NCBI GenBank assembly: GCA_963814605.1
Contig: CAWFDD010000003.1
Location: forward strand, 609,734 to 673,733
Length of the DNA stretch: 64,000 nucleotides
From: an uncultured Acidobacteriota bacterium
GTDB taxonomy: Bacteria > Acidobacteriota > Terriglobia > Acidiferrales > UBA7541
Direction of reading: 5' to 3'
Below the pieces are notes generated by a model. It had not been told where the DNA came from, ran no database searches, and was given only the letters and a program-made list of their open reading frames with translations. This document shows, one piece after another, positions 4,102 to 25,498 of this stretch (within the stretch, counting starts at the first letter, position 1; every line of letters begins with the position of its first letter). Position numbers and translations under genes: made by a program.

Positions 4102-4613
4102 TTCTGTCCCTCGGCTCCCGACCATGATAGCAGCCGGTTATTCAATCGGTGAGGCAGCGAGCGCCGTCTATTATGATGCAATCTAGCGCCCGGTCCGGTG
4201 AGGGAATTTTGGAATGGACACGATGCCGCTAAGTCACGCACAATCTGGGACTTGAAGAAGACGCAGGGCGAATTCGGCGCGAACTTCTTTGGGATGGGGC
4301 CGTTCAGTCCGTGGGTCAATCATCTCCGAGATGTGGAACACTTTTTCCACTGTTCGGCCTCTCGACTCCATGAAATCCCCAATGCGTGGCGAATGTAAGT
4401 TGCTGATTAGAGGTCATTAACCGGCATTCTTGGCGTAAGTCATTATTAATCAGCGTCGGGAACGAAATGGCAAGCACTTTACCCATTCGTGGAAGCTGGT
4501 CGGGACTAAATGGGCATTCCTAGCGAACCGACGCCAGCTGCCAATGCCATATAACGTTATGCAAAAAAGCCAGTTATTTTGGATTCCGTTTTGGGCATAG
4601 GAGCGCCTGGTAC

Positions 4614-4629
4614 TGGCAGTCGTCGTGCA
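4614..4629 (+). promoter_or_regulatory. Candidate sigma54 (-24/-12) promoter P1: TGGCAG-N5-GTGC
   Basis: TGGCAGTCGTCGTGCA matches 8 of the 10 specified positions of TGGCAC-N5-TTGC with exact spacing. It lies 78 nt upstream of the ATG at 4707. Confidence 0.4.
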
Positions 4630-4706
4630 ATCTCAAGTTTCCGGAGGAGTAGGTCGCGTCGGCAGTCGGACGGCAGTAGAACGCGATCGGAACTTGACCG
4701 TATCTC

Positions 4707-5678
4707 ATGACCAGCCAAAGAGTTGACGAACTAACGGTGCAGCAAGTTGACGCCGGCTTCGTTGGAGGCATCAGCCCCGTCATGCAGGCTCTGGAAGGCG
4801 TGGTTGGTGAGATCGCTCCCACAAGTATTCCGGTGTTGCTGGTTGGAGAAAGCGGCACGGGCAAAGAGATGTTCGCGAACCGGATTCATAAGCTTTCGGA
4901 GTTCGGCGAACAGCGGATGGCAAGAATATCCTGCGCGGCCATGAATCCGAGCGCGTTTTCGGGCGAACTGGGACTGAATTCGAACGGACGGAGCGAGACT
5001 GCGAAGAACGCATTCGGCACGCTGTTCCTGGACGAAATCAGCGAACTGGAACCCGAATGCCAGCGCAGTTTGCTGTGCGCGCTGCCTGACGGTGATGCCG
5101 GAACGCGAAGGGGGTTGCTGAAAGCGCGCGTAATTTCGACGACCAGCCGGAACCTGGACGAAGAAATGCGCGAGGGGCGTTTTCGAAGAGAACTCTATTA
5201 TCGGATTAACGGTGTCTGTTTGCGATTGCCGCCTCTGCGCGAACGAAAGGAAGATATTCCGCTGCTGGCAGATTTTTTCCTGGCCAAGCATGCTTCGCAA
5301 ATGCGCCGAGCGAGGCCGTCGGTGAGTCCTCGCACGCTCGAAGCGTTTCTGGATCATTCCTGGCCGGGCAACATACGCGAGCTTGAAAACGTGGTGATAA
5401 AATTGGTGGCGCTTGGGGATGAGCGGCTGGCCATCGCGGAACTGGGAAACGCTGTTTTCGTCGCCCGAAGGACAGAGGCGGTTGCGGTTCAGGGCCATTC
5501 CCTGAAGGCCGCGGCCCGAGCGGCATCGCGCGAAGCGGAGCGCGAACTGATTTTGAAGGCCTTGGCGCGAACGCGATGGAATCGGAAGCGCGCCGCACAG
5601 GAATTGCAGATTAGCTACAAATCCCTGCTGTACAAACTGAAGCAGATCGGGTTCGATGAGTCTGAGGTGAATCCGTGA
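4707..5678 (+). CDS. AAA+ enhancer-binding-protein (NtrC-family) homolog with a Fis-type HTH. It has no receiver or sensory domain, and the GAFTGA loop is deleted.
   Basis: Walker A is GESGTGKE and Walker B is GTLFLDEISEL. The Arg-finger region is FRRELYYRING, followed by PPLRERKEDI and WPGNIRELENV. The C-terminal HTH is RKRAAQELQISYKSLLYKLKQ. An in-frame TGA lies 4 codons upstream of the ATG, so no N-terminal domain is possible. Confidence 0.85.
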   Translation: MTSQRVDELTVQQVDAGFVGGISPVMQALEGVVGEIAPTSIPVLLVGESGTGKEMFANRIHKLSEFGEQRMARISCAAMNPSAFSGELGLNSNGRSETAKNAFGTLFLDEISELEPECQRSLLCALPDGDAGTRRGLLKARVISTTSRNLDEEMREGRFRRELYYRINGVCLRLPPLRERKEDIPLLADFFLAKHASQMRRARPSVSPRTLEAFLDHSWPGNIRELENVVIKLVALGDERLAIAELGNAVFVARRTEAVAVQGHSLKAAARAASREAERELILKALARTRWNRKRAAQELQISYKSLLYKLKQIGFDESEVNP

Positions 5679-12402: not shown

Positions 12403-12456
12403 ATCTCAGATTGATTTAGCTTGTGCCGGACGAGGAACCGCAAGACAGAAATCAAA

Positions 12457-13641
12457 ATGGCCAACAGCGACCCAAAGATTTTTCTTGGAGATGTAAGACC
12501 TCCGCAACGAAATGGACGCAAGGCGTTGTCGCGTATGGGCGCTGTGCCACCGCGGCGAGAAGCGATCCTCGGAGAAGATACGCTGCACGCGATGCTGACG
12601 CTGGAACGCAGGCGCGCAGAGCGGTCGCGCAAGCCTTTCGTTCTGATGCTGCTGGACTCGCGCGAAGTGCCGAAGAATGGAAACGGCTCGAGATTCACTG
12701 AGCAGCTTTCCTCCGTTGTTTGCGACGCGACCCGTGAGACCGATCTAATTGGCTGGTATGAAGAGGGCGCGATCCTGGCCGTCATCTTCACGGAGATTAG
12801 CGTCGAGGGAAAGAATCCCATCACCGAGGTTTTGCATTCCAAGGTCGTAGCAGCATTGCGAGAGAATCTCGATCACCGGCTGGCGCCAAAATTAGTCGTT
12901 ACAGTCCATCTTTTCCCGGAGAACTGGAATACGGAACATCCCGACCGAGTGGCTGATATTAAGCTCTATCCCGAGCTTTCGAAAGGTAGCAGCAAGAAGC
13001 GGCTACCCATGATTGTGAAACGCGTAATCGATGTTCTCGGTAGCGGCGCGTTGTTGCTCATCCTTTCACCGATATTGGCGGCGATTGCTCTATTAATTAA
13101 ACTGACGTCCAAGGGACCGGTTATTTTCGAACAGGAGCGCCTGGGACAGTTCGGGAAACGATTCGGATGTCTCAAGTTCCGAACGATGTACACGAATAAT
13201 GACCCGAAGATACATCGTGAGTTCGTTCAACGCTTCATCGCCGGTAACGAGCAGAAGCGGGTAGAGAGCGAAACCGAGTCGGTTGTTTACAAGATCACGA
13301 ACGACCCTCGCATCACGCCGATCGGCAAGTTCCTGCGCAAGACCAGCCTCGATGAGTTTCCGCAGTTCTGGAATGTCCTGCGCGGCGAAATGTCACTTGT
13401 GGGCCCGCGCCCTCCGGTACCGTATGAGTTTGAAGTGTACGATTTTTGGCACCGGCGCAGAGTGCTCGAGGTGAAGCCGGGTGTCACCGGATTGTGGCAG
13501 GTGAGCGGACGAAGCCGAACTTGCTTCGACGACATGGTTCGATTGGATCTCCGGTATTCCCAGTCCTGGTCACTGTGGCTCGATCTTAAGATCCTGGTGG
13601 CCACACCACGTGCGGTCTTCACGAGTGAAGGCGCGTTCTAA
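12457..13641 (+). CDS. Polyprenyl-phosphate phosphoglycosyl transferase (Bac_transf, monotopic PglC/WbaP-C type) with an N-terminal degenerate GGDEF-like domain
   Basis: The C-terminal part reads [43 protein letters not shown]...KFRTM...[37 protein letters not shown]. See findings for the N-terminal ~190 aa. I prefer the ATG at 12457 over the TTG at 12421. Confidence 0.9.
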
Positions 13642-13848
13642 TTTTCGCTCGAACCTCGATTTCCGCTGCTTCTTTATCTTGGAATTCGCAAGTACCTCGT
13701 TTTCTGATTTATCAGCACTCCGTAAACGCATCGTCTAAGTCGATGAATCAGCCTGAGGCAGGCGAGCGCGAGGGAACGATTCGATCGAACTAGACTTCAG
13801 GTGCATCAAGATACGAACAGACACTTCTCCGCAGACTGCAGAGGAAAA

Positions 13849-14850
13849 ATGATCCGAGTCGGTGTGATTGGCTACGGTTATTGGGGTCCCAATATCGTCC
13901 GAAACTTGCACGGATTGGACTCAACACGCGTGGAGATGGTGTGTGACATGAGCTCCAAGGCTCTGGCGCGTGTGAGGAAGGCCTATCCGGGCATCTCCAC
14001 GTGCTCCGATCCGACGGAAATTCTGACTTCGCCTGCCATCGACGCGGTGGCGGTGATCACCCCGGTTTGGACTCACTACGAACTGGCGAAGAAGGCGCTG
14101 GAAAATGGGAAGCACGTTTTCGTTGAGAAGCCGTTTACCTCGACCGCGGAGCAGGCCGAGGAATTAATTGAACTCGCGGCGCGGAAAAATCTGAAGATTA
14201 TGGTGGACCACACGTTTTTGTTCACCGGGGCGGTGCGAAAGATTCGCGAACTCACGGAAAGCGGCGCGCTGGGCGATCTCTATTACTATGATTCACTGCG
14301 CGTCAACCTTGGGTTGTTCCAGCACGACGTGAGCGTCATTTGGGATTTGGCTCCTCACGACCTCGCGATCATGGATCACCTGATCAAAGGCGAGCCCGAG
14401 GCCGTGGTAGCAACCGGCGAACGCCACCTGAACGGAGTCGAAGACGTAGCGTTTATGACGATCTATTACCCGGGAAACGTAATCGCGCACATTAACGTTA
14501 ACTGGCTCTCACCGGTGAAGATTCGTATGACCATGATCGGCGGCCAAAAGAAGATGCTGGTCTGGAACGATCTTGTGGCAGACGAAAAACTGCGGGTGTA
14601 CGACAAAGGCGTTCAAATTACTTCGGGTGATGGAATTCGAGACCTACTGGTCAGTTACCGCACGGGCGACATGTGGGCGCCGCAGGTGGCGCAGTTGGAA
14701 GCGCTGCACGTGGAACTCGATTACTTCGCGGATTGCATCCTGAACGACAAGACGCCCTTCAACGATGGGCATGCCGGTTTGCGCATCGTGCGCATGCTGG
14801 AAGCTGCCGACGTGTCGATCCAAAAGAGAGGAGAATTGGTCCGCCTGTGA
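13849..14850 (+). CDS. Gfo/Idh/MocA-family NAD-dependent sugar oxidoreductase (WbpB/GnnA-like)
   Basis: MIRVGVIGYGYWGPNIVRNL... is a Rossmann motif, and ...HVFVEKPFT... follows. I prefer the ATG at 13849 (gagga RBS) over the GTG at 13801. Confidence 0.85.
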   Translation: MIRVGVIGYGYWGPNIVRNLHGLDSTRVEMVCDMSSKALARVRKAYPGISTCSDPTEILTSPAIDAVAVITPVWTHYELAKKALENGKHVFVEKPFTSTAEQAEELIELAARKNLKIMVDHTFLFTGAVRKIRELTESGALGDLYYYDSLRVNLGLFQHDVSVIWDLAPHDLAIMDHLIKGEPEAVVATGERHLNGVEDVAFMTIYYPGNVIAHINVNWLSPVKIRMTMIGGQKKMLVWNDLVADEKLRVYDKGVQITSGDGIRDLLVSYRTGDMWAPQVAQLEALHVELDYFADCILNDKTPFNDGHAGLRIVRMLEAADVSIQKRGELVRL

Positions 14851-15344
14851 ACGAATTCTGCGTAATTTCGCCGGACGTGAAGCTGGGACAAGGCGTCAAG
14901 CTTTCCAAGTTCATCAATCTGTATGGCTGTCAGATCGGCGATGAAACGAAAATCGGCGCGTTTGTTGAAATTCAAAAGAATTCCAGCGTCGGACGCCGCT
15001 GCAAGGTTTCGAGTCACACGTTCGTATGTGAGGGCGTGACGATTGAAGACAACGTATTCATCGGCCACGGCGTGACATTCATCAACGATTCCTATCCGCG
15101 CGCGACGACGCCTGACGGTGAGATCCAAACCGAAAAGGATTGGCGCGTGGAGACCACGGTGGTCAAACGCGGAGCTTCCATCGGATCGGGATCCACGATT
15201 CTTTCCAAGATCGTGATCGGCGAGAACGCGATAGTCGGCGCGGGGAGTGTGGTGACCCGCGACGTGCCCGCCAACACGATTGTTGCCGGCAATCCGGCAA
15301 GGATTCTGCGCTCAATTGAAAATCCAACAAAGGTGAACGGATGA
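14847..15344 (+). CDS. Left-handed beta-helix (hexapeptide) N-acetyltransferase, WbpD/WlbB-like
   Basis: Hexapeptide repeats are visible (IGDETKIGAFVEIQKNSSVGRRCKVSSHTFVCEGVTIEDNVFIGHGVTF...). The GTG at 14847 overlaps the upstream TGA (GTGA). The upstream 58 codons of the track ORF overlap the previous gene. Confidence 0.8.
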   Translation: MNEFCVISPDVKLGQGVKLSKFINLYGCQIGDETKIGAFVEIQKNSSVGRRCKVSSHTFVCEGVTIEDNVFIGHGVTFINDSYPRATTPDGEIQTEKDWRVETTVVKRGASIGSGSTILSKIVIGENAIVGAGSVVTRDVPANTIVAGNPARILRSIENPTKVNG

Positions 15345-16546
15345 CGAACAACGCAAAGATTCCTTTTGTCGATTTGGTGACTCTGCATCGCGAACTCGAG
15401 ACGGAATTACTGGAAGTGTGCAAGAAGGCCATTCAATCGGCCGGCTTCATCGGAGGGCCGGAGGTCGAGGGATTCGAGCGCGAGTTTGCCCAGTTTTGTG
15501 ATGCGAAGCATTGCGTGGGGGTCAACAGCGGCACCGATGCGCTCCGTTTTGCTTTGACAGCGGCAGGAGTTCAGCCCGGGGATATCGCGCTGACCGTGTC
15601 GCATACCTTTATCGCGACTACCGAGGCGATATCTCAGGCAGGCGCTCAACCGGAGTTTATTGATGTCGACCGGCGGACGTACAACATGGACCCGGGAAAG
15701 CTCCGGCACTTTCTGGACGCGAAATGCGTGTTCGACAAAGCGACGGGCCGATACGTTCACAAGAATTTGGGAAAACCCGTGACAGCGGTGGTTCCAGTTC
15801 ACCTCTACGGCCAGATGGCTGATATGGACGCCATCTTGGAGATTGCGGAGAAGTACAAACTGATCGTCGTTGAAGACGCTTGCCAGGCGCACGGCGCGGA
15901 GTATTTCTCCAAGAAGCAGAATCGCTGGTTGAAGGCAGGTTCGGTTGGCCGCGCGGCGGCGTTCAGTTTTTATCCCGGAAAGAATCTGGGCGCGTGCGGA
16001 GAAGGCGGAGCGATCACCACGAATGATCCGGAAATTGCGCGCAAGTCGGCGATGATTCGAGATCACGGCCAGTCCAAGAAGTACTATCACGACGTCGAAG
16101 GTTACAACGGGCGGCTCGATTCGATGCAAGCGGGTATGCTGCGCGTCAAATTGAAGCATCTTTCGAAGTGGAACGAGCAGCGTCGCGAGAGTGCGCGAGT
16201 CTATGATGAGCTGTTCAAGGCGATGGGAGGCAGCGTTGTGTCGCCCTACCAGCCGAGCGAATCAAAGTCCGTATATCACTTGTACGTGGTGCGGACACCG
16301 TTCCGCGATGAGCTGCAGAAACATTTGAACGAAGCCGGCATCGGAACCGGAATTCACTATCCCATCCCGGTTCACGTCCAGAAAGCCTATGCCTCCTTGG
16401 GCTGGAAAAAGGGCGATCTTCCCGAGTCGGAAGAAGCCGCGGATCAAATTCTCTCACTCCCCATGTTTGCCGGATTGACGACGGATCAACAAAAGCGCGT
16501 AGCGGAGAGCATCTGTCAGTTCGCAACTTCCTACGCAGTTCGCTGA
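15341..16546 (+). CDS. DegT/DnrJ/EryC1/StrS-family PLP-dependent sugar aminotransferase
   Basis: The sequence reads ...GVNSGTDALRFAL...VEDACQAHGAEY...FSFYPGKNLGACGEGGAITTND..., which contains the PLP-lysine region. The start overlaps the upstream stop (ATGA). Confidence 0.9.
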   Translation: MTNNAKIPFVDLVTLHRELETELLEVCKKAIQSAGFIGGPEVEGFEREFAQFCDAKHCVGVNSGTDALRFALTAAGVQPGDIALTVSHTFIATTEAISQAGAQPEFIDVDRRTYNMDPGKLRHFLDAKCVFDKATGRYVHKNLGKPVTAVVPVHLYGQMADMDAILEIAEKYKLIVVEDACQAHGAEYFSKKQNRWLKAGSVGRAAAFSFYPGKNLGACGEGGAITTNDPEIARKSAMIRDHGQSKKYYHDVEGYNGRLDSMQAGMLRVKLKHLSKWNEQRRESARVYDELFKAMGGSVVSPYQPSESKSVYHLYVVRTPFRDELQKHLNEAGIGTGIHYPIPVHVQKAYASLGWKKGDLPESEEAADQILSLPMFAGLTTDQQKRVAESICQFATSYAVR

Positions 16547-16595
16547 TTTCGACGGTCCCACTATCCTCGGAATTCCTTCCAGTCAATCAAAATTG

Positions 16596-17789
16596 ATGCG
16601 AGAAATCTCTTCTGGATTGGAAGCAGCGGGCCGGGCACTCCTTAGCAGTGCGTCTGCTCGGATGCAGACCGGCATTCGCACAAGCGGTGAGCGCCAGATG
16701 GATGTGCGGGAGTTGAATTCGCTGGCGCTGCGATCCCTCGGCTCTCTTTTCAACGAAAGAGAGCAGCTTTTTTCCCACCGCGTTATTTTGACTGGCAATG
16801 GATTTTGGTGGGACGCATCGTCGCGGAAACGTACGATGGTCGCGCTTCTGGGATTGCATCGGCTAGCAGAATTTGGGGGCACCCAACCGTTTGACATTGC
16901 CTCGGTTCGGGACGTCGTCCTGCGGGACAAGAGTTGGGTAAAGAAAGCCGGAGACCTGGGCCTGCTGACTTGGTTTGTTGCTGTTTGCGCGCCGGATCGG
17001 CTGGGTGCAATATTCAAGGAGTTCGATTTCGAAAGCGCACTAACGATCTATTCGGATGGCCGGCAGGCTCGTACGACCGGCTTGGCGTGGTTCTTGGCGG
17101 GCATCGCCCACGCTCGACTCGCGTGTCCTGAATCGCTTCCGGACCTGACCGACGTGGCAGTGGATGCGTACCATTTGCTCAAAGATAACCAGAGCGAAAA
17201 CGGCATTTTTGGGCACGCCGCTTCGCCTGGCTTTCCTCGGGAGATGCTGTATGGCCGACTGGGAACGTTCTCCGATCAAATATATTCGATCTACGCGCTT
17301 TCGTTGTTTGCCCAAGCTTTTCATATCGAGGAACCGCTCGAATCTGCTCTGGGGTGCGCAAATGAGGTGTGTGCGCTGCAAGGAGAGATGGGGCAATGGT
17401 GGTTCCTTTACGATAAACGTACGGCTCGCGTCGTAAACCGCTATCCCGTGATTTCACTGCATCAAGATGGAACGGCTCCCTGCGGACTTCTTGCGCTGGA
17501 AGAAGCGACCGGTCGAAACTTCCAAGAATCAATATTCAAGGGATTGTCATGGATTGCCGGGGCAAACGAACTTGGAAATGATCTCCGAAATCGTGATCAA
17601 GCGTTCATTTGGGATTCGATCGGACCCAACAGTCGAATCCGAAGATACTCGGATGCAGCGCTTGGTTTGATGTTTCCTCGCCGCGAGACCAAAGCACGAG
17701 GTCTTGGAATCCGGTACGAAGCTCGCGCCGATCATTTGGGATGGCTACTCTACGCGTTCGGAAGGCATGGCCTACCGGACAGTAGATAA
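16596..17789 (+). CDS. Hypothetical protein, possibly of alpha/alpha-toroid (six-hairpin) type
   Basis: The ORF is long and its codon usage looks like that of its neighbours. Repeated helix-pair patterns with aromatic-rich turns are present (GNGFWWD, GQWWFLYD). I recognise no diagnostic motif. The start is uncertain. Confidence 0.5.
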   Translation: MREISSGLEAAGRALLSSASARMQTGIRTSGERQMDVRELNSLALRSLGSLFNEREQLFSHRVILTGNGFWWDASSRKRTMVALLGLHRLAEFGGTQPFDIASVRDVVLRDKSWVKKAGDLGLLTWFVAVCAPDRLGAIFKEFDFESALTIYSDGRQARTTGLAWFLAGIAHARLACPESLPDLTDVAVDAYHLLKDNQSENGIFGHAASPGFPREMLYGRLGTFSDQIYSIYALSLFAQAFHIEEPLESALGCANEVCALQGEMGQWWFLYDKRTARVVNRYPVISLHQDGTAPCGLLALEEATGRNFQESIFKGLSWIAGANELGNDLRNRDQAFIWDSIGPNSRIRRYSDAALGLMFPRRETKARGLGIRYEARADHLGWLLYAFGRHGLPDSR

Positions 17790-17836
17790 GTGATTTACTG
17801 GCGCTCGATTGCGCATCCACGGCTGCGATTTGACTA

Positions 17837-18724
17837 ATGAAGACCGCTTCTCACTACGTATTGATCACGCCGGCGCGCAATGAGGCACAGTTTCTTGCGC
17901 TGACCATAGAATCGGTGATCGCGCAGACCGTCAAGCCGACCAAGTGGGTTATCGTCAGTGATGGTTCAACAGACGGCACGGATGAAATTGTGGCCCGCTA
18001 CACCGGCGAACACCAATGGATTGAACTCGTCCGGATGCCCCAGCGCGGAGAGCGGCATTTTGGCGGAAAAGCTGCTGCTGTTAATGCGGGCCGCGAGCGA
18101 TTGAGCGCCTCGCAGTATGACGTGATCGGTAATTTGGACGCGGATGTATCCTTCGAATCCGATTATTTCGAATTCATGATGGCGCGATTTGCCGAAAACC
18201 CCAAGTTAGGTTGTGCCGGTACCGCGTTTCGCGAAAAGGACTTGAGTTACAACTATGAGTTCGTGGGCACCGAACATGTTTCAGGCATGTGCCAAATGTT
18301 TCGCCGCGAGTGTTTCGAAGAAATCGGGGGATATGCGGCGATCAAATCGGGTGGGATCGATCTCATAGCCGTATTGAGTGCACGGGTGAAGGGCTGGGAA
18401 ACGCGAACCTTTCCCGAGAAGACTTTCGTCCACCACCGGACTCAAGCAGGCGCACTGCACTCAGGTTTGCGAGAACGAGTGCACGCGGGCCGTAAAGACT
18501 ATCTTCTGGGAAATCACCCATTGTGGGAGTTTTCCCGAAGCATCTATCAGATGCATCGCAAGCCATATGTGCTGGGCGGCTTGCTCGTTCTTGGATCCTA
18601 TATGTGGAATCTGGTTCGCGGTGTCGAGAGAACGATCCCAAAAAACCTGATGATTTTGCGCCAGAACGACCAGATGAAGCGTTTGAAAATGATCGTACAG
18701 CGCCGCCTCCCTTTGGGTAGCTAG
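17837..18724 (+). CDS. Glycosyltransferase family 2
   Basis: The sequence reads YVLITPARNEAQFLALTIESVIAQTVKPTKWVIVSDGSTDGTDEIV...NLDADV... Confidence 0.85.
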   Translation: MKTASHYVLITPARNEAQFLALTIESVIAQTVKPTKWVIVSDGSTDGTDEIVARYTGEHQWIELVRMPQRGERHFGGKAAAVNAGRERLSASQYDVIGNLDADVSFESDYFEFMMARFAENPKLGCAGTAFREKDLSYNYEFVGTEHVSGMCQMFRRECFEEIGGYAAIKSGGIDLIAVLSARVKGWETRTFPEKTFVHHRTQAGALHSGLRERVHAGRKDYLLGNHPLWEFSRSIYQMHRKPYVLGGLLVLGSYMWNLVRGVERTIPKNLMILRQNDQMKRLKMIVQRRLPLGS

Positions 18725-18734
18725 GCTCATTTAG

Positions 18735-19886
18735 GTGGCCGGACAATTCACCTTCAGGAATTCCATGCAATCATCGGAACAAAATACGCCTCGTACTGGT
18801 TCGCGGATCGAAAGCAATGCCTCCCTCGTGGAGCATGGGTATATTGTCGAGAGGAGCGATCCCGTGCTAGTGACGGGGGCGAACGGATTTATCGGTTCTC
18901 GAGTCGTCGAGGGCTTACTGGAACTTGGCTTCGAGAACGTGCGTTGTCTTGCAAGGTCTTCGAGTGGTGGCAACCGGCTCCAGGCAATCGCCAAAATCGA
19001 CGAAAACGCCTCTCGAATGGAAATAATCACCGGGAATCTCCTTTCGCCGCAGGACTGTGCAAATGCTGCGAAAGATGTAAAAGTCATATTTCACCTCGCC
19101 GCCGGGCGAGGCGAGAAGTCTTTTCCCGATGCATTCATGAATTCCGTTGTTACGACGAGAAATTTGCTCGAGGCCGCAGGCCATGGCTGCCTGAAGCGCT
19201 TCGTAAACATCAGTTCATTTGCCGTTTACTCCAATCGCGGAAAAAGCCGAGGCAAATTGCTGGACGAAACCTGTCCCATGGAAGACCACCCAGTGCTGCG
19301 CGGAGAAGCATACTGCTTCGCAAAAGTGGAGCAGGACCGAATCGTGATGGAGTATGGGAGAAAACAGGGCATTCCCTACGCGATCGTAAGGCCAGGCCAA
19401 GTGTATGGCCCGGGCAACGAAGGAATCACAGGCCGTGTTGGAATCGGAACGTTCGGTATTTTTCTGCACTTGGGCGGTTCTAATACGATACCGCTGACCT
19501 ATGTTGACAACTGCGCCGACGCCATAATTCTGATCGGGCTCAAGCACGGGACCGACGGGCAGGTATTTAATGTAGTGGATGACAACCTTCCAACTAGCCG
19601 TAGATTTCTGCGCCTTTACAAGAAGAATGTCGGTGCCTTTCCCTCGCTGTACATTCCTCACGCGGTCAGCTACGCGCTCTGCTACCTATGGGAAAAATAC
19701 TCTGTTTGGTCCCAGGAACAACTGCCATTGGCGTTCAATCGCAGGAGATGGCACTCCTATTGGAAAAGTACGAGCTACAGTAACGAAAAACTCAAAACGC
19801 TCGTGGGTTGGAAACCAAGAGTCAATACGCAGGACGCGCTAAGCCGTTTCTTTGCGAGCTGCAGAATGCAGAGAGCCCGTGCTTAA
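18735..19886 (+). CDS. NAD-dependent epimerase/dehydratase (extended SDR)
   Basis: VLVTGANGFIGSRVVEGL is the NAD-binding motif, and the catalytic YCFAK fits YxxxK. The start is uncertain (GTG at 18735 or ATG at 18765). Confidence 0.8.
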   Translation: MAGQFTFRNSMQSSEQNTPRTGSRIESNASLVEHGYIVERSDPVLVTGANGFIGSRVVEGLLELGFENVRCLARSSSGGNRLQAIAKIDENASRMEIITGNLLSPQDCANAAKDVKVIFHLAAGRGEKSFPDAFMNSVVTTRNLLEAAGHGCLKRFVNISSFAVYSNRGKSRGKLLDETCPMEDHPVLRGEAYCFAKVEQDRIVMEYGRKQGIPYAIVRPGQVYGPGNEGITGRVGIGTFGIFLHLGGSNTIPLTYVDNCADAIILIGLKHGTDGQVFNVVDDNLPTSRRFLRLYKKNVGAFPSLYIPHAVSYALCYLWEKYSVWSQEQLPLAFNRRRWHSYWKSTSYSNEKLKTLVGWKPRVNTQDALSRFFASCRMQRARA

Positions 19887-21003
19887 GATTGCCATCGTAG
19901 GATGCGGAAAGATCGCGGATTCACACGCATCTCAGATCGGGAGGATCAAGGGATGCGAGATTGTCGGGGTGTGCGATCGAGAGCCCCTAATGGCCCAACA
20001 GTTAGCCAAGAGGTTTCCGATCAACCAGGCGTTCAGCAGCTTGAGCGAGCTTCTGGATGAAACCAAGCCCGACGTCGTTCACATTACCACGCCCCCTCAA
20101 AGTCACTTTGATTTGGCGAGTGCTTGCTTGGATCGGGGATGCCATGTCTACATCGAAAAACCCTTTACGGTTCATGCGAATGAAGCCGAAAAGCTGATCA
20201 CGATGGCCAACGCGACGGGTCTGAAGATAACAGCAGGCCACGACGATCAGTTCAGTCACGTGACCCGACGCATGCGTTCGCTGGTCCAGAGCGGATACTT
20301 AGGCGGCAATCCGGTACACATGGAGAGTTACTACTGTTACGAAATTTCAAAAGCGGGTTACGCAGGAGCACTACTCGGGGATAAACAGCATTGGGTGAGA
20401 CGGCTGCCCGGAAAGCTGTTGCAGAATATTATTAGTCACGGCATCGCCAGGATTGCGGAGTTCTTAGCGGGCGATTCCCCTGAAGTGGTCGCATACGGTT
20501 TCACGAGTCCTCTACTCCGGAGTATGGGTGAAACCGAAATCATCGATGAGTTGAGGGTAATTATCCACGATGAAAGCGGGACGACGGCATATTTCACGTT
20601 TTCCTCGCAGATGCGGCCCGGACTTCATGGATTTCGGATGTACGGCCCCAAGAACGGGCTTGTTCTCGATCAAGATCAGGAGACTTTGATCAAGCTTCGA
20701 GGCACGCAGTACAAGAGCTACGCCGAAAAGTTCGTTTCCCCGTTGGTCGCGGCCGGACAGAATGTCCGAAATGTGGCTGCGAATCTCAAGACTTTCCTGG
20801 GAAACGATTTCCACATGAAGGCGGGGATGAAGTATTTGATCGAAGCATTTTACCGTTCGATCGTCGAAGGAACCGAGGGTCCGATTCCATATCGTGAGAT
20901 TGTACTTACCGCGAGAATAATGGAAACTATTTTTGATAGCCTTGGCAGCGAATCCGGCACGCACTCCTGTGCGATGCCCTCGCGATCCGCGGCCATCAGC
21001 TGA
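19879..21003 (+). CDS. Gfo/Idh/MocA-family oxidoreductase
   Basis: The sequence reads VLKIAIVGCGKIADSHASQI...VYIEKPFT. The GTG at 19879 overlaps the end of the upstream gene by 8 nt. Confidence 0.8.
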   Translation: MLKIAIVGCGKIADSHASQIGRIKGCEIVGVCDREPLMAQQLAKRFPINQAFSSLSELLDETKPDVVHITTPPQSHFDLASACLDRGCHVYIEKPFTVHANEAEKLITMANATGLKITAGHDDQFSHVTRRMRSLVQSGYLGGNPVHMESYYCYEISKAGYAGALLGDKQHWVRRLPGKLLQNIISHGIARIAEFLAGDSPEVVAYGFTSPLLRSMGETEIIDELRVIIHDESGTTAYFTFSSQMRPGLHGFRMYGPKNGLVLDQDQETLIKLRGTQYKSYAEKFVSPLVAAGQNVRNVAANLKTFLGNDFHMKAGMKYLIEAFYRSIVEGTEGPIPYREIVLTARIMETIFDSLGSESGTHSCAMPSRSAAIS

Positions 21004-21050: not shown

Positions 21051-22136
21051 ATGCGAGCTACTGAGATCAAGGATTACAACGCGGCTCCTGCCACGGACGG
21101 TTTCGTCCAGATTCGCGTCAAAGGAAGGTGGGAGGTGGTGCCCGCTGCCGAAATCAACGGCACCAAGGTCCTCGTTAAGGGGAAATGGCTGAAAACAGCA
21201 GCCGTCCGCAGCGAAGAAATGATGACGGACGAGTTGCAAAACCCGGAGCTTTACGTCGAAAAGCTGAAGCACGAAAGGAACCCGGCATTAAGGGCTGACA
21301 TCTTCACGTTCACTCAGAAGGTTCCTAACGCCGAACCGAGGTACGCTTATTTAGCCGAGCGCGAAAGCATAGCCGTGATCCACGTGGTTAGTTTTAGAGA
21401 ATGGTGGGAAGGCCTGCCGCAAGAAACCCGGAAAAACGTGAGACGCGCCCAGAAACGCGGCCTCCAGGTAAGAGTCAGCGACTTCGACGATGATTTGATT
21501 CAAGGAATTCGCGGTGTGAACGACGAAACGCCGTTGCGGCAAGGAACAGCGAATGCGTACTACGGAAGGAGTCCAGCCGAGACGAGGCAGCTCTACGGCG
21601 AGTTTATAGGGCGCTGCGACTTCGTTTGCGCCTACTTCGGCGAGGAGCTCGTGGGGTTTCTGCACTTGGTCTATCGCGGAAATGTCGCATCGATCCTAAA
21701 CCTCACAACGAAACCGAGCCATTCTGACAAGAGACCAGCGAACGCTTTGATGGCCAAAGCAGTGGAGATTTGTGAGACAAGGGGCATCTCATACATTACT
21801 TATGGCCGATACAACTATGGCAACAAGCACGACAGCCCGTTGCGTGAGTTCAAAGTTCGAAACGGATTTGGGGAAACTCTTGTACCTCGATTCTACGTCC
21901 CGTTGAATGTCTGGGGAGCGTTCTGTTTGAGGGTGAAACTTCATCGCGGTCTGGTCGGGATTCTACCGCACAGCGCAATTGTGGTGGGCGTTAGGATTCG
22001 AGCCAAGTGGTACAATTTCAGACAACCTCAAAGCCGGTGTAGCTCAACGCCAGAGCGGCCGAATCGTACTCGGCAGACGGAGCGTTCAACCCCTCCCGCC
22101 GGCTCCAATCCCAATTCTCCAGTTGCCGATCGCTAG
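21051..22136 (+). CDS. FemAB-like GNAT-fold protein (Acetyltransf_6/CelD-like)
   Basis: The core reads ...ETRKNVRRAQKRGLQVRV...ELVGFLHLVYRGNVASILNLTT...ANALMAKAVEICETRGISYITYG. It aligns by eye with the paralog at 40409. The last ~35 codons are P/R/S-rich and coincide with the tRNA-like element. Confidence 0.7.
   Translation: MRATEIKDYNAAPATDGFVQIRVKGRWEVVPAAEINGTKVLVKGKWLKTAAVRSEEMMTDELQNPELYVEKLKHERNPALRADIFTFTQKVPNAEPRYAYLAERESIAVIHVVSFREWWEGLPQETRKNVRRAQKRGLQVRVSDFDDDLIQGIRGVNDETPLRQGTANAYYGRSPAETRQLYGEFIGRCDFVCAYFGEELVGFLHLVYRGNVASILNLTTKPSHSDKRPANALMAKAVEICETRGISYITYGRYNYGNKHDSPLREFKVRNGFGETLVPRFYVPLNVWGAFCLRVKLHRGLVGILPHSAIVVGVRIRAKWYNFRQPQSRCSSTPERPNRTRQTERSTPPAGSNPNSPVADR
22033..22107 (+). 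tRNA. tRNA-Thr(CGU)-like cloverleaf with non-canonical D loop and T stem. It may be a specialised tRNA or a pseudo-tRNA.
   Basis: Hand-folded as follows:
- Acceptor stem GCCGGTG/CGCCGGC (6 Watson-Crick pairs plus 1 GU), then T8 A9.
- D stem GCTC/GAGC with D loop AACGCCA.
- Anticodon stem GCCGA/TCGGC with loop A-T-CGT-A-C.
- Variable loop AGAC.
- T arm GGAG(C)G-TTCAACC-CCTCC.
- Discriminator T and an encoded CCA. Confidence 0.5.
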
Positions 22137-22150
22137 GAAAGCCCAAAACC

Positions 22151-23974
22151 ATGCCTGGTATCGCCGGTCTTGTAACCAGACTGCCGCGCGCACGTGCCGT
22201 CGCGACGTTGTGCAGGATGCTCGAGCCGCTTCGCCACGAGTCCTTCTATGAGACTGGGGTTTGGATTGATGAGTCCCTGGGCGTCTACGTTGGATGGGCG
22301 GCCAGGAAGGGATCTTTTTGCGACGCGATGCCGATCGCCAACGAAACGGGCGATATATCACTTGTATTTTCAGGACAGGAGTATCCAGAACCCGGAGCGA
22401 TTCGTGCCTTAAAAGAGAGAGGGCACTCATTTGACGCACGAAGTTCCTCGTACCTTGTTCATGTTTATGAAGACGATCCAAATTTTCCGCAGGCCTTGAA
22501 CGGGCTCTTTCACGGCATTGTAGCGGATCGAGTCCGCGGTATTGCAACTCTCTTCAACGATCGATATGGAATGCACCGGCTCTGTTATCACCAGTCAAGC
22601 GACAGTTTCTACTTTGCAGCAGAGGCTAAAGCTATCCTGGCGGCGCTTCCGGAACTGCGGGAGCCTGATCCTCGCAGTATCGGAGAATTCGTGGCTTGCA
22701 GCTGTGTTCTTGGGGACCGAACGATATTCAAGGACATCCAGGTTCTGCCCGCCGGCTCCGCGTGGGTTTTTCGCAATGGCACGATCGAAAAGAAGGCCCG
22801 CTACTTCCAAACGAGTGAATGGGAGCAGCAAACGCCGCTAGATTCGGAGTCGCACTATCACGAGTTACGGAGAACATTTTCCAAGGGTTTACCGCTCTAT
22901 TTTTCTGATGATGAGCGGGTCGGTATGACTCTCACTGGTGGCTTCGACACCCGGATGATCATGGCCTGGCATCAGTCGGCTCCTGGCACGCTTCCTTGCT
23001 ACACATTTGGCGGAATGTTCCGAGAGTCGCAAGATGTTCGAGTCGCGCGACGAATTGCGGAACTATGCCGACAACCGTACAACGTGATTACGGTCGGTGA
23101 TGAATTTCTTGCTCGTTTTCCCCATTATGCCGAGCGGACGATCTACCTGACTGAAGGCGGAGTGGACGTCAATCGTTCGTCCGATTTGTTTGTAAGCGAG
23201 AAAGCGCGCCAGATTGCGCCTGCGAAAGTGGTCGGGACCTATGGCAGTGAGATTATCCGCCAAGCGGTAATGTTCAAGGCCGCGCCTCCGCCGAATGGTC
23301 TCTTCCAGCCCGAATTTCTTTCGAGCGTCCAGCTAGCTCAAAAAACATATGCTGAGCTCCGTCGCGAGCATCCCGTTACGTTTGCTGCGTTCCGCCAGTC
23401 TCCGTGGTATCACCAAGGAGTTCTGGCTCTGGAAAGTACTCAGTTGACCGTGCGTTCGCCATACCTCGACAACGAATTCGTGCGAACCGTATTCCGAGCT
23501 CCGCACTCGAACGGACGAAATGGCGACGTTCGGCCACGGCTGATTCGCGATGGCAGCGCGGTACTTGGAAAGTTTCGAACCGACAGAGGAGCAGGCGGAG
23601 ATTCCGGCCGTCTTGTTTCATCCGCGGCCCGCGGCTTACATGAGTTTTCGTTCAAGGCGGAGTATGCCTACGATTACGGAATGCCGAAATGGCTAGCTCG
23701 CGTTGATCACGCTCTGTCGCCGCTGCACTTGGAGAAGCTTTTTCTAGGCAGGCACAAGCTGTGTCACTATCGAGTTTGGTACCGGGATAGCCTTTCCAAG
23801 TATGTAAGGGAAATACTGCTCGACTCGCGAACGCTCTCCCGTCCGTACCTCGAACCCAAGGGAGTGGAAGCCGTCGTAAATGGTCACACCAAGGGCGGCA
23901 TGAACCATACGACCGCGATTCACAAGCTTCTTTCGTTGGAGTTGTTACACCGACTTTTTATGGATGGAAGATGA
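22151..23974 (+). CDS. Asparagine synthetase B-family (Ntn amidotransferase + PP-loop synthetase) homolog lacking the N-terminal nucleophile Cys
   Basis: It starts MPGIAGLV (canonical is MCGI.G). The glutaminase-fold region reads ...LVFSGQEY...LFNDRYGMHRLCY. The PP-loop-like motif is MTLTGGFDTRMI. Confidence 0.8.
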   Translation: MPGIAGLVTRLPRARAVATLCRMLEPLRHESFYETGVWIDESLGVYVGWAARKGSFCDAMPIANETGDISLVFSGQEYPEPGAIRALKERGHSFDARSSSYLVHVYEDDPNFPQALNGLFHGIVADRVRGIATLFNDRYGMHRLCYHQSSDSFYFAAEAKAILAALPELREPDPRSIGEFVACSCVLGDRTIFKDIQVLPAGSAWVFRNGTIEKKARYFQTSEWEQQTPLDSESHYHELRRTFSKGLPLYFSDDERVGMTLTGGFDTRMIMAWHQSAPGTLPCYTFGGMFRESQDVRVARRIAELCRQPYNVITVGDEFLARFPHYAERTIYLTEGGVDVNRSSDLFVSEKARQIAPAKVVGTYGSEIIRQAVMFKAAPPPNGLFQPEFLSSVQLAQKTYAELRREHPVTFAAFRQSPWYHQGVLALESTQLTVRSPYLDNEFVRTVFRAPHSNGRNGDVRPRLIRDGSAVLGKFRTDRGAGGDSGRLVSSAARGLHEFSFKAEYAYDYGMPKWLARVDHALSPLHLEKLFLGRHKLCHYRVWYRDSLSKYVREILLDSRTLSRPYLEPKGVEAVVNGHTKGGMNHTTAIHKLLSLELLHRLFMDGR

Positions 23975-24013: not shown

Positions 24014-25498
24014 TTGAGCCCTTCCCTAGCACTTGTGGTTTACAGCGTCGCAATCGCTGGACTTTTTTACCTTGATCGAGATAAGTCCATCCGGACTTCC
24101 TGGGCGCTGTGGATTCCGGTTCTCTACCTATGGGTTCTTGGATCAAGACCCGTATCAGCATGGCTGGGAGTGACGCCTGCTAACGGTGCGAATGTCCAGC
24201 TTGATGGCAGCCCTGTTGACGCGGTTTTCTTCGCGCTCTTAGGTATTGCGGCGTTATGTGTCCTGGTCCATCGGGGGCGCCGAACAATCGCCTTGGTCCA
24301 TGCAAACTGGCCGATTTTGATCTTCTTCTTGTACTGCTTGCTGAGCGTCTTTTGGTCCGATTTCCCAGGCGTGGCCTTTAAACGATGGACTAAAGCGATC
24401 GGCGATCTGCTAATGATCCTCATTGTTGTAACAGATCGACAACCGGTCGCCGCTCTTCGTCGCCTGCTCTCTCGCACCGGCTTCGTTTTGATGCCTCTAT
24501 CCCTGCTGTTTATCAAATATTATCCGAATCTTGGCCGGTCGTATGACCCATGGACCGGTGGGCAGATGTTCACTGGCCTGACGACTGACAAGAATATGCT
24601 CGGAGTGATTACGTTTGTTCTCTCACTGGGAGCGCTTTGGCGCATTGTCGGACTCTTCCGGTCTGAGGAGGTTTCCTGGGAACGCCGGAGGCATCTGGTA
24701 GCCCAGGCAACGCTGCTGGTCATCGGAGTGTGGCTACTGATACAGGCAAATTCAGATACCTCTATCGTGGGTTTCGCCCTCGGGGCCGGACTGCTGTTGG
24801 TGACGAACCTGCGGTACATAAGACGTCATACCGCTGCCGTGCACATACTCATTCTGTCGCTCATCTTGACTGGTAGTTTGGTCAAATTGCTCGGTGGTGG
24901 AGCGAGCGTGGCTGCAGCGTTGGGTCGTAATCCGACCCTCACCGGACGCACGGAGATATGGGCGGCTATTATCCCGATGTCGCGCAATCCATTGGTCGGG
25001 GCGGGATTCGAAAGCTTCTGGCTCAACCCAGATGTAGCGCAGAGACTAGCAGTGGTGTTCCCGGGTCTCCCTCTCAGCGAGGCTCACGACGGGTACATAG
25101 AGGTCTATCTCGAGCTCGGCTGGGCAGGAGTTGGATTGATTGGGCTCGTTTTGATCGACGGTTATCGCCGTTCGGTCAAAGCTTTTCGCCGCGATCCGGC
25201 GTTGGGCAGCCTACTAATCGCTTATGTCGTGTCCGCGATGGTTTACAGCGTGACTGAGGCTGGCTTCCGGATGATGGATCCGATCTGGATCTTCTTCCTC
25301 CTTGCCGTAATCGAATCGAGTAGCATAGCCGCCGGTCTGAGTCTCGGAACATCGCCGCGTCTCGAGACGTCACCCAATCGAGTCTCTGAATTGCCGGCCA
25401 CGAATGCTCTTGCTATGACGCCTACAAGACGAACTATGGCTGGCAAATCGTCGAACGATGAACGACTTAATTTCAATCGGGGCGTGCGGGGATGGTGA
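24014..25498 (+). CDS. O-antigen ligase / Wzy-like polymerase family membrane protein
   Basis: There are at least 10 hydrophobic segments. The Wzy_C-type loop reads ...TGRTEIWAAIIPMSRNPLVGAGFESFW...AHDGYIEVYLELGWAGVG. The start is a TTG with an aagggag RBS. Confidence 0.8.
   Translation: MSPSLALVVYSVAIAGLFYLDRDKSIRTSWALWIPVLYLWVLGSRPVSAWLGVTPANGANVQLDGSPVDAVFFALLGIAALCVLVHRGRRTIALVHANWPILIFFLYCLLSVFWSDFPGVAFKRWTKAIGDLLMILIVVTDRQPVAALRRLLSRTGFVLMPLSLLFIKYYPNLGRSYDPWTGGQMFTGLTTDKNMLGVITFVLSLGALWRIVGLFRSEEVSWERRRHLVAQATLLVIGVWLLIQANSDTSIVGFALGAGLLLVTNLRYIRRHTAAVHILILSLILTGSLVKLLGGGASVAAALGRNPTLTGRTEIWAAIIPMSRNPLVGAGFESFWLNPDVAQRLAVVFPGLPLSEAHDGYIEVYLELGWAGVGLIGLVLIDGYRRSVKAFRRDPALGSLLIAYVVSAMVYSVTEAGFRMMDPIWIFFLLAVIESSSIAAGLSLGTSPRLETSPNRVSELPATNALAMTPTRRTMAGKSSNDERLNFNRGVRGW

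Follow-up and report, generated by a model that had tools for sequence, protein, structure and literature searches.

A tRNA-Thr-like element joined to a Fem/aaPGS-type transferase gene in surface-glycan loci of Acidobacteriota: a candidate non-decoding aminoacyl carrier

The locus and the element

The 64,000-nucleotide (nt) stretch analyzed here, referred to as the window, originates from an uncultured Acidobacteriota bacterium (contig CAWFDD010000003.1) and, according to Pfam and NCBIfam assignments of its large open reading frames (ORFs), represents one large surface-glycan locus. The window encodes, in this order, Wza- and Wzz-like export proteins, an initiating sugar transferase, a module of a GFO oxidoreductase, a hexapeptide acetyltransferase, and a DegT aminotransferase, glycosyltransferases, an epimerase and a second GFO oxidoreductase, a GNAT-family transferase, a tRNA-like element, an AsnB-like enzyme, a Wzy-like protein, a heptose-nucleotide module, and an ABC exporter. 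The subject of this study is the tRNA-Thr-like element at positions 22033-22107 of the window, which lies in frame within the 3' end of the GNAT gene (ORF 21051-22136), as a first-pass annotation of the sequence had stated and as the ORF list agrees. The transferase gene and the parts of the element are as follows (all on the forward strand).

21051-22031, +: homologous part (residues 1-327) of a Fem/aaPGS-like tandem-GNAT transferase, the proposed user of the element (PF13480, homolog ends, AlphaFold2 model, Foldseek)
22032-22136, +: incidental read-through tail of the GNAT ORF (SRCSSTPERPNRTRQTERSTPPAGSNPNSPVADR, then TAG at 22134-22136; ORF list)
22033-22107, +: tRNA-Thr-like element, 75 nt (ARAGORN, Rfam tRNA match of 44.3 bits, minimum-free-energy cloverleaf, covariation over 92 copies)
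22033-22039 / 22097-22103, +: acceptor stem, GCCGGUG/CGCCGGC, with a U6·G67 wobble; then U8 and A9
22042-22056, +: D arm, stem GCUC/GAGC, loop AACGCCA without GG
22058-22074, +: anticodon arm, stem GCCGA/UCGGC, loop AUCGUAC, anticodon CGU at 22065-22067
22075-22078, +: variable region
22079-22096, +: T arm, stem GGAG(C)G/CCUCC with the bulged C at 22083, loop UUCAACC
22104, +: discriminator U (U73)
22105-22107, +: encoded CCA

Detection and structure of the element

ARAGORN calls a tRNA-Thr (cgt) precisely at 22033-22107 of the forward strand, the sole tRNA in the window, and Rfam family RF00005 matches it end to end (22033-22104, model positions 1-71) with 44.3 bits compared to a gathering score of 29 (E-value 3.8e-06 for the whole window against 4227 families). 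The element is thus called by two of the tRNA detectors that the first-pass annotation had suggested as a check, and the cloverleaf described there holds in every detail according to sequence reading, ARAGORN, Rfam, and the predicted fold. This includes its two aberrations, a D loop lacking GG and a T-stem bulge at 22083, the latter visible in the RF00005 alignment as one extra base on the 5' side of the T stem. The cloverleaf is the minimum-free-energy fold of the element, the energy by itself being unremarkable (z = -1.6). The anticodon loop of this particular copy (7 nt, with U33, CGU, and A37) is that of a canonical elongator tRNA. No second copy of the 5' motif of the element was found in the 64-kb window.

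Conservation, gene linkage, and covariation

More than 100 loci, mostly from Acidobacteriota, carry the same element at or just past the 3' end of a homologous GNAT gene, in agreement with the expectation of the first-pass annotation that a functional element should recur in orthologous loci (individual loci are denoted below by L and a number). Two routes led to these copies. Starting from the GNAT protein, 27 genome loci were collected, all from Acidobacteriota and covering several orders; ARAGORN predicts a tRNA-Thr at the end of the GNAT gene in 22 of them, Rfam or direct reading adds the element in L005, L018, L019, and L021, and only L025 lacks it. The RF00005 scores of these relatives vary between 38 and 56 bits, with L028 reaching 65 bits and possessing a regular T stem. 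Starting from the RNA only, a metagenome scan with a 29-nt pattern comprising the bulged T arm and the 3' strand of the acceptor stem yielded at least 80 loci. Among the 80 pattern matches listed, a GNAT gene lies upstream on the same strand in 73, the upstream sequence is too short in 6, and a single locus, L062, has ample upstream sequence and no GNAT gene. The linkage persists to approximately 32% protein identity, and nearly every sampled gene of the Thr-linked enzyme branch carries the element. No tRNA was detected by ARAGORN, Rfam, or reading at the GNAT homologs of L025, L153, L155, and L159/L160.

The 92 distinct 75-nt copies align without gaps, and 99.7% of their stem cells pair under the cloverleaf. 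Double compensatory changes (41 cells) affect all five anticodon-stem pairs and two D-stem pairs, so that the stem covariation proposed as a check is present in seven pairs; none of 500 shuffles reaches any of the five covariation measures used, and slid partners pair in only 34-59% of cases. The acceptor and T stems do not vary in the alignment, partly since their 3' strands belong to the 29 nt at the 3' end that the search pattern dictated in the 80 metagenome copies. A chance cloverleaf is ruled out by the detector scores and the covariation.

Two loci of this set deserve separate mention. The element of L062 (5264-5338) has neither a GNAT nor an AsnB-like gene nearby, carries C at position 37, and follows a 404-aa ORF without a Pfam family (3997-5211) and a membrane protein that reads as flippase-like. 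L012 (Solibacteraceae) contains a degenerate element fused to the GNAT ORF (about 4925-5010, tail SRLAAGRPNGNPSVECSTPPAASST*) and, about 85 nt downstream, an intact copy with a D-loop GG (5091-5165); from the sequence, this looks like a tandem duplication of which one copy has decayed.

Relation of the element to the ORF

The tail of the window ORF is the in-frame translation of the element and the next 29 nt (nine codons and the stop). In an AlphaFold2 model built from 22 homologs, tail residues 324-361 have no confident structure (predicted local distance difference test, pLDDT, below 50). Nearly all of the 120 closest homologs (64-79% identity) end in SRCSST.ERPNRTRQMERS.PPAGS, and each of the 120 has either the translated tail or a shorter '...PV*' ending; the latter ('...KPV*') arises because the ORF stops on U8-A9-G10 of the element, read as TAG. 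The relation between the ORF and the element was counted in 96 loci with a resolvable C-terminus of the enzyme. The ORF reads through the whole element in 45 loci, stops on U8-A9-G10 in 13, stops elsewhere inside the element in 7, and stops immediately before G1 in 4; in the remaining 27 loci it ends 6-885 nt upstream, leaving the element free-standing. In L028 the element is read in the third frame, and the ORF-element relations thus span all three frames or none.

Codon positions were compared in 24 loci that share the frame of the window. In the enzyme body, positions 1/2/3 have a mean pairwise identity of 0.76/0.84/0.43; the corresponding values for the element are 0.88/0.83/0.94, and its stems (0.97) are more conserved than its unpaired positions (0.81). 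The six linker codons ahead of the element are poorly conserved. Since codon periodicity is absent and third positions are the most conserved in the tail, the pattern points to selection acting on the RNA, the tail peptide being a by-product. The first-pass annotation had called the tail unlike protein and had named its conservation at the amino acid level as an observation that would speak against an RNA element. Such conservation is nominally present among close homologs, and to this extent the description fails; it is explained by the conservation of the RNA, given the frame variation, the missing codon periodicity, and the unstructured tail, and in this sense the description stands.

The same data make it extremely improbable that the element is a decaying tRNA duplicate or an integration scar, or that the tail is a conserved C-terminal peptide of the GNAT protein. 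For a duplicate or a scar one could cite the aberrant D loop and T stem and the degenerate copies in L012 and L161, and for a peptide the amino acid conservation of the tail in close homologs. A decaying duplicate is ruled out by family-wide purifying selection and compensatory changes across 92 distinct copies from several orders. An integration-site scar was rejected as well, as no integrase or repeat context was seen, the synteny is stable, and the window holds a single copy. A functional peptide is contradicted by the absence of codon periodicity, by the occurrence of all frame relations, and by a tail without confident predicted structure.

The position of the stop codon indicates some interplay with translation. 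Read in the 'SRCSS' frame, 40 of 104 loci, far above chance, have their first stop codon exactly two codons past the TCC of the CCA end, and a stop at this place is absent in all five inspected loci whose ORF stops at or before the element (L014-L017 and L021). The window is an exception, its stop lying nine codons beyond CCA (22108-22136). This distribution suggests that ribosomes really do traverse the element and that there is pressure for termination directly behind it.

Ahead of some free-standing copies lie -35 and -10 boxes that appear plausible by eye (L085:1024-1154, L100:254-433, L058:563-880, and L070:1500-1547), and the motif CGCUUUACCUUUGC(A/G)A(U/A)AAAA occurs immediately before the element in both L058 and L070, which suggests that the element has its own promoter in such loci.

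Retained and relaxed positions

The determinants of E. coli tRNA-Thr for threonyl-tRNA synthetase (ThrRS) are G1-C72, C2-G71, G35, and U36, and the first-pass annotation had recognized all of them in the window copy. Across the 92 copies, no variation occurs at G1-C72 and C2-G71, 91 copies have G35 and 91 have U36, and the rest of the acceptor stem shows only swaps between U·G and C-G, at pairs 3-70 and 6-67. U8, A14, and A58 are kept as well, and U73 and the encoded CCA are kept wherever they could be assessed in the protein-found copies. Position 34, by comparison, is variable (U in 40 copies, C in 39, A in 13, and G in none), with the anticodon flipping between CGU, UGU, and AGU among close orthologs. 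The standard bacterial Thr anticodon is GGU, a single change away from CGU, so the absence of G34 may reflect selection against a version decoding the common ACC and ACU codons; bacteria, to our knowledge, do not normally read Thr codons with A34.

The features required on the ribosome are less well maintained. U33 is found in 72 of the 92 copies and A37 in 76 (losses of 22 and 17%, respectively), and L029, L048, L051, and L084 have 8-nt anticodon loops, so that the loop of an elongator tRNA (7 nt, U33, a purine at position 37, and a stable anticodon) is not preserved across the family. Only 15 copies have a D-loop GG (84% lack it), and the G18G19 elbow is missing from the window copy. A one-base bulge between T-stem pairs 52-62 and 53-61 (C in 51 copies, U in 40, and A in 1) is present in all 92, in place of the regular 5-bp T stem of elongator tRNAs, L028 being the one regular exception. 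The alignment thus depicts a Thr class that keeps what ThrRS reads and drops what the ribosome needs, and this combination favors a non-decoding carrier.

In general, Thr identity consists of acceptor-stem pairs and anticodon nucleotides, with a weak role of position 73 (PMC9976931). The elements L036:166-240 and L049:562-637 retain the usual body and acceptor stem and have the anticodon loops AUACCAA and UCAACCAA, which may indicate a different identity or the loss of charging. A glycosyltransferase family 4 (GT4) gene follows the element in L036 instead of the AsnB-like gene, which is kept in L049.

A putative second, Ala-type class

A different element overlaps the gene of the distant homolog P0152 (38% identity). 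About 30 of the 120 closest P0152 relatives end in GAVAQ.AE.R, which is the translated 5' half of this element. Four copies were identified by sequence reading at the 3' end of sister-clade GNAT genes.

L152:1840-1911: Ala-type element
L156:4237-4307: Ala-type element
L157:4871-4944: Ala-type element
L158:4314-4383: Ala-type element

All four have the acceptor stem GGGGC(A/G)G/C(U/C)GCUCC, yielding G3·U70, together with A73 and canonical D and T arms. Their anticodon arm is replaced by a stem of 5-6 bp capped with a GNRA loop (GAAA, GCAA, or GUAA), and hence they possess no anticodon; compensatory changes in this capped stem occur among the four copies. CCA is encoded only in L157. The host of L156 is a metagenome-assembled genome of Terrimicrobiaceae (Verrucomicrobiota). 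The gene order is that of the Thr class (glycosyltransferase family 2 [GT2], GNAT, element, AsnB-like, and Wzy-like), and in a quick neighbor-joining tree of 97 GNATs the four loci fall into one clade, which also holds L159, without an element, and L161, with an apparent remnant. Alanyl-tRNA synthetase (AlaRS) does not read the anticodon, whereas ThrRS does need it. The G3·U70 pair is the AlaRS determinant (PMC2655667). This Ala-type class is a lead from four sequences, and it fits the carrier model closely.

In L161, the 83 nt between the Ala-clade GNAT gene and the AsnB-like gene (4899-4981) begin with GGGGCGG and end with CUGCUCCGCCA; this stretch has no tRNA score and a weak fold, and may be either a decayed remnant or a strongly remodeled carrier.

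Both classes bear on the question of whether the window element is an ordinary decoding tRNA-Thr isoacceptor placed in a glycan operon, for example for supplying or regulating the reading of a rare Thr codon. ARAGORN and Rfam indeed class the element as a tRNA, the window copy combines U33, CGU, A37, UUCAACC, and CCA, and the minority of copies with a D-loop GG, as well as the high-scoring L028 with its regular T stem, would suit this role. We nonetheless consider it quite unlikely. A decoding tRNA would hardly change its anticodon among close orthologs, A34 included, lose U33, A37, and most D-loop GG pairs, tolerate several 8-nt anticodon loops, and bulge its T stem in every copy; unlike housekeeping tRNA genes, the element remains linked to an accessory gene down to about 32% protein identity, and its sister-clade counterpart has no anticodon at all.

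The linked transferase

The 21051 protein was searched against 1.8 billion representative proteins. Distant homologs (30-45% identity) cease aligning at query residue ~320-327, just before the element. The first-pass annotation had placed the end of the homologous C-terminus near 22014 by comparison with a supposed paralog at 40409; the distant-homolog alignments agree with an end at about 22014-22030, and the comparison used as its basis does not hold, since the two proteins have no detectable similarity (BLASTP E = 2.6). The 21051 protein matches only Pfam PF13480 (GNAT family) and PF00583, with no match to Pfam FemAB (PF02388), TIGR03019, or any NCBIfam model; its earlier assignment to the FemAB/PEP-CTERM family has therefore been replaced by PF13480. 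Soil metagenomes contain thousands of members of this enzyme family.

A family-profile sequence search of the PDB returned only marginal, generic GNAT matches, and fold comparison was used instead. The AlphaFold2 model of residues 1-327, built from 83 diverse sequences, has a pLDDT of 94 and a predicted template-modeling score (pTM) of 0.90; it replaced the mediocre first model (pLDDT 66) obtained from the 22 close homologs, the fold matches of which agree. The top 16 Foldseek matches in the PDB are all aminoacyl-tRNA-dependent transferases, aligned over about 300 columns with template-modeling (TM) scores of 0.51-0.62, namely Sbb17/Sba18, FemX of Weissella and S. aureus, and the catalytic domains of MprF/aaPGS. 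CoA-dependent tandem GNATs reach a TM of only about 0.4. The model accordingly assigns the 21051 protein to the fold class of Fem/aaPGS aminoacyl-tRNA-dependent transferases, in line with the earlier view that the enzyme next to the element uses aminoacyl-tRNA.

A TIGR03019/FemAB-like gene does occur elsewhere in the window, at 40409-41458, scoring below the TIGR03019 cut-off and lying beside an ABC-2 exporter pair; no tRNA-like signal was found at its 3' end, even at E <= 10.

Genomic context and the AsnB-like neighbor

The genes surrounding the transferase and the element in the window are listed below.

12421-18724, +: upstream part of the glycan operon (Pfam; DegT and GT2 homologs recur in related loci), with genes starting at 12421 (initiating sugar transferase), 13801 (GFO oxidoreductase), 14673 (hexapeptide acetyltransferase), 15341 (DegT aminotransferase), 16593 (unknown ORF), and 17837 (GT2)
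18735-19886, +: NAD-dependent epimerase/dehydratase (Pfam), sugar-nucleotide-modifying, often upstream of the GNAT gene
19852-21003, +: GFO/IDH/MocA oxidoreductase (Pfam), likewise sugar-nucleotide-modifying and often upstream of the GNAT gene
22151-23974, +: AsnB-like amidotransferase/adenylating enzyme, beginning MPGIAG without Cys2 (Pfam Asn_synthase and GATase_7; weak TIGR03108)
24014-25498, +: Wzy/O-antigen-ligase-like membrane protein (Pfam Wzy_C), recurring downstream in many related loci and marking a surface-glycan assembly cluster

Judging from its gene content, the 12421-18724 module could supply an amino-sugar acceptor. The epimerase/GFO synteny recurs in L007, which lies on the complete chromosome OY969908.1, and in L008, L010, L011, L013, L043, L048, L050, L065, L091, and L101. 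GNAT gene, element, and AsnB-like gene follow each other directly in 60 of the 91 loci whose downstream sequence is long enough, and the median distance from the element to the start of the AsnB-like gene is ~80 nt. The N-terminus of the AsnB-like protein is MPG(I/L)(V/A)G rather than MCG in 54 of 56 cases, that is, without the glutaminase Cys nucleophile, and an adenylating ligase is the more likely function than an amidotransferase. A scan of the window revealed no promoter or terminator consensus around the element, and Pfam assignments of its large ORFs revealed no dedicated synthetase or tRNA-handling gene.

The compact arrangement raises the possibility that the element acts in cis as a tRNA-like mRNA structure, for instance as an RNase P/RNase Z site or a stabilizing 3' end that separates or tunes the expression of the GNAT and AsnB-like genes, with no aminoacylation involved. 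The missing promoter and terminator consensus in the window, the overlap or direct contact of the element with the GNAT ORF in 69 of 96 loci, its short distance to the AsnB-like start, and the stop exactly two codons past CCA in many loci are compatible with this explanation. We judge it unlikely, because a processing signal needs only the minihelix of acceptor and T arm, which leaves the near-invariant G35 and U36 without explanation, as well as the switch to G3·U70 and A73 in the sister clade, all of these being synthetase identity elements (PMC9976931, PMC2655667). In addition, the 27 free-standing loci, in which the element is up to 885 nt away from the GNAT gene and in some cases preceded by a plausible promoter of its own, do not fit a cis-acting role.

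A carrier RNA with another chemistry was also considered, in which the amino acid is modified while tethered to the RNA, by analogy with tRNA-dependent amino acid transformations, or in which the AsnB-like enzyme is the true partner. The direct succession of element and AsnB-like gene in about two-thirds of the loci is in its favor, as is L070, where the AsnB-like gene begins 21 nt past the element, though an extra gene separates the element from the GNAT gene, and so is the lack of the glutaminase Cys, which excludes a plain amidotransferase. It seems improbable to us, given that linkage to the GNAT gene is tighter (73 of 74 pattern-found loci with enough upstream sequence, among the matches listed), that a GNAT gene and an element occur without a nearby AsnB-like gene in L002, L014, L016, L017, L072, and L096, and that the GNAT fold already offers a complete and precedented use of aminoacyl-tRNA.

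Proposed role of the element

These loci contain a cloverleaf RNA that is under purifying selection, retains some positions and relaxes others in a consistent manner, and is linked to the gene of an enzyme with the predicted fold of aminoacyl-tRNA-dependent transferases. We propose that the element is probably a tRNA-Thr-derived, gene-linked, non-decoding aminoacyl carrier for glycan modification, hard-wired to the Fem/aaPGS-type transferase gene. The element would be transcribed with the operon or, in distant relatives, as a free-standing gene, possibly from its own promoter, and a tRNA-like excision would leave the encoded CCA end. Housekeeping ThrRS could then charge it through G1-C72, C2-G71, G35, and U36. 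The first three T-stem pairs largely set the affinity for EF-Tu, and the element might be kept away from the EF-Tu/ribosome pool by the combination of its T-stem bulge, an elbow that in most copies lacks the G18G19 contacts, and a loosely constrained anticodon loop. The neighboring transferase would pass the threonyl group to a precursor of the glycan, for which an amino sugar produced by enzymes of the same operon is a plausible candidate, and the conserved AsnB-like enzyme probably participates in the same modification.

Several points weigh against this proposal. The anticodon loop of the window copy is perfectly ordinary, and its sequence is compatible with decoding. The effect of the T-stem bulge on EF-Tu, RNase P, and ThrRS is an assumption. 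The invariance of the T arm, the acceptor 3' strand, U73, and CCA rests on the approximately 25 protein-found copies. L036 and L049 have no G35U36, and the enzyme family includes members apparently without an element (L025, L155, and L159), so that a dedicated carrier would not be obligatory for it.

A broader version of the proposal, for and against which we see the balance as even, is that the elements constitute a new class of gene-linked, non-ribosomal aminoacyl-carrier RNAs, former tRNAs reduced to the needs of a synthetase and a transferase. The Thr type would keep G35U36, and the Ala type would keep G3·U70 with the anticodon lost; the elements would track the enzyme phylogeny and be widespread in the glycan loci of soil Acidobacteriota and Verrucomicrobiota. 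For carriers located within the ORF, excision would cut the mRNA before the stop codon, and each transcript would therefore yield either enzyme or carrier, making in-ORF excision a possible stoichiometry switch.

Comparison with known systems

The closest analogue is the non-proteogenic tRNA-Gly of staphylococci, which escapes translation through altered T-stem pairs that set its EF-Tu affinity. Poor binding to EF-Tu and the ribosome is a feature of the staphylococcal molecule; what it has in common with the element described here is an extra tRNA-derived molecule whose D and T regions are altered and which the housekeeping synthetase presumably charges, and the donation of an amino acid to a Fem-type transferase acting on an envelope polymer, which in the present case is only proposed. 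The staphylococcal tRNA-Gly variants (NP1-NP3) serve the FmhB, FemA, and FemB transferases (PMC7826273, PMC12256121). In our case the predicted amino acid is Thr (Ala in the sister clade) instead of Gly, the polymer a surface glycan instead of peptidoglycan, and the hosts Acidobacteriota and Verrucomicrobiota, so that the element is an analogue and not a homologous member of that lineage. The RNA gene is fused or adjacent to the transferase gene rather than located in a rRNA/tRNA operon; its T stem is altered by a bulge and not by weak pairs, and its anticodon loop is drifting or deleted.

Among the enzymes, the best GNAT fold match is provided by the streptothrisamine peptide synthases Sbb17 and Sba18 (9wqx, 9wqy, 9wqw; target-normalized TM of 0.60-0.62), which are only about 14% identical in sequence and, judging from the titles and the ligand of the PDB entries, are part of a streptothricin-type antibiotic pathway and not of a glycan locus. 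FemX of Weissella viridescens (1ne9, 4ii9, 7z6a) has the same fold class and recognizes only the distal acceptor arm and the 3' end of Ala-tRNA-Ala (PMC2655667), which fits the invariant acceptor stem and the dispensable anticodon arm of the elements; the AlaRS determinant G3·U70 also occurs in the sister-clade element. FemX differs in using an ordinary cellular tRNA-Ala and UDP-MurNAc-pentapeptide as the acceptor, and the 21051 protein lacks the Pfam FemAB match. The tandem-GNAT catalytic domain of MprF/aaPGS (4v34-4v36, 5vrv, 6lv0, 9j8q), likewise among the top fold matches, also takes aminoacyl-tRNA as the donor, but its acceptor is a membrane lipid, the domain is fused to a flippase domain, and the tRNAs are ordinary Lys- or Ala-tRNAs. 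Finally, the 3' tRNA-like structures of plant viruses and the tRNA-like domain of transfer-messenger RNA are non-elongators that keep synthetase identity elements and CCA, some without an anticodon (PMC9976931). Their acceptor arms are pseudoknotted or split and serve replication, translation, or ribosome rescue, in contrast to the plain cloverleaf beside a chromosomal transferase gene.

In the full-text literature, the coverage of which is incomplete, we found no account of a Fem/aaPGS-type transferase with a linked tRNA or tRNA-like gene, whether in glycan loci or in any other setting, which is an absence of evidence only. Relative to the staphylococcal precedent, the new aspects are the amino acid, the polymer, the phyla, the physical fusion to the enzyme gene, and the loss of the anticodon in the sister clade. 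The non-proteinogenic tRNA-Gly lineage is present only in staphylococci (PMC7826273), and until now dedicated non-proteinogenic tRNAs have been regarded as a peculiarity of peptidoglycan synthesis in staphylococci; if the proposal is true, the same strategy was invented independently, is common, and serves another amino acid, polymer, and set of phyla. A carrier welded to the enzyme gene would provide a simple genomic marker for tRNA-dependent glycan modification, and the pair could be a compact, orthogonal aminoacyl-carrier/transferase module for glycoengineering. The family can also be viewed as a natural experiment in tRNA identity, revealing which positions survive once decoding is not required, with the Thr and Ala classes contrasting the anticodon-reading ThrRS with AlaRS, which ignores the anticodon. 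In current annotations, gene callers run these ORFs through the RNA and tRNA finders report an ordinary tRNA-Thr or 'tRNA-???', both of which mislead.

Loci with unusual architecture

In L029:5001-6948, and also in L030 and L031, the GNAT domain is the C-terminal half of a 630-aa GT2-GNAT fusion. The L029 ORF stops inside an element whose T stem is bulged and whose anticodon loop has 8 nt (ACUCGUGA); the neighboring genes are on the opposite strand. In L153, from an AT-rich genome, a distant GNAT gene (32% identity) is flanked by two AsnB-like genes and followed, within an AT-rich spacer, by a GC-rich island of ~140 nt (3935-4075). ARAGORN and Rfam give no match to this island, which may represent an unrecognized structured RNA at the usual position of the element.

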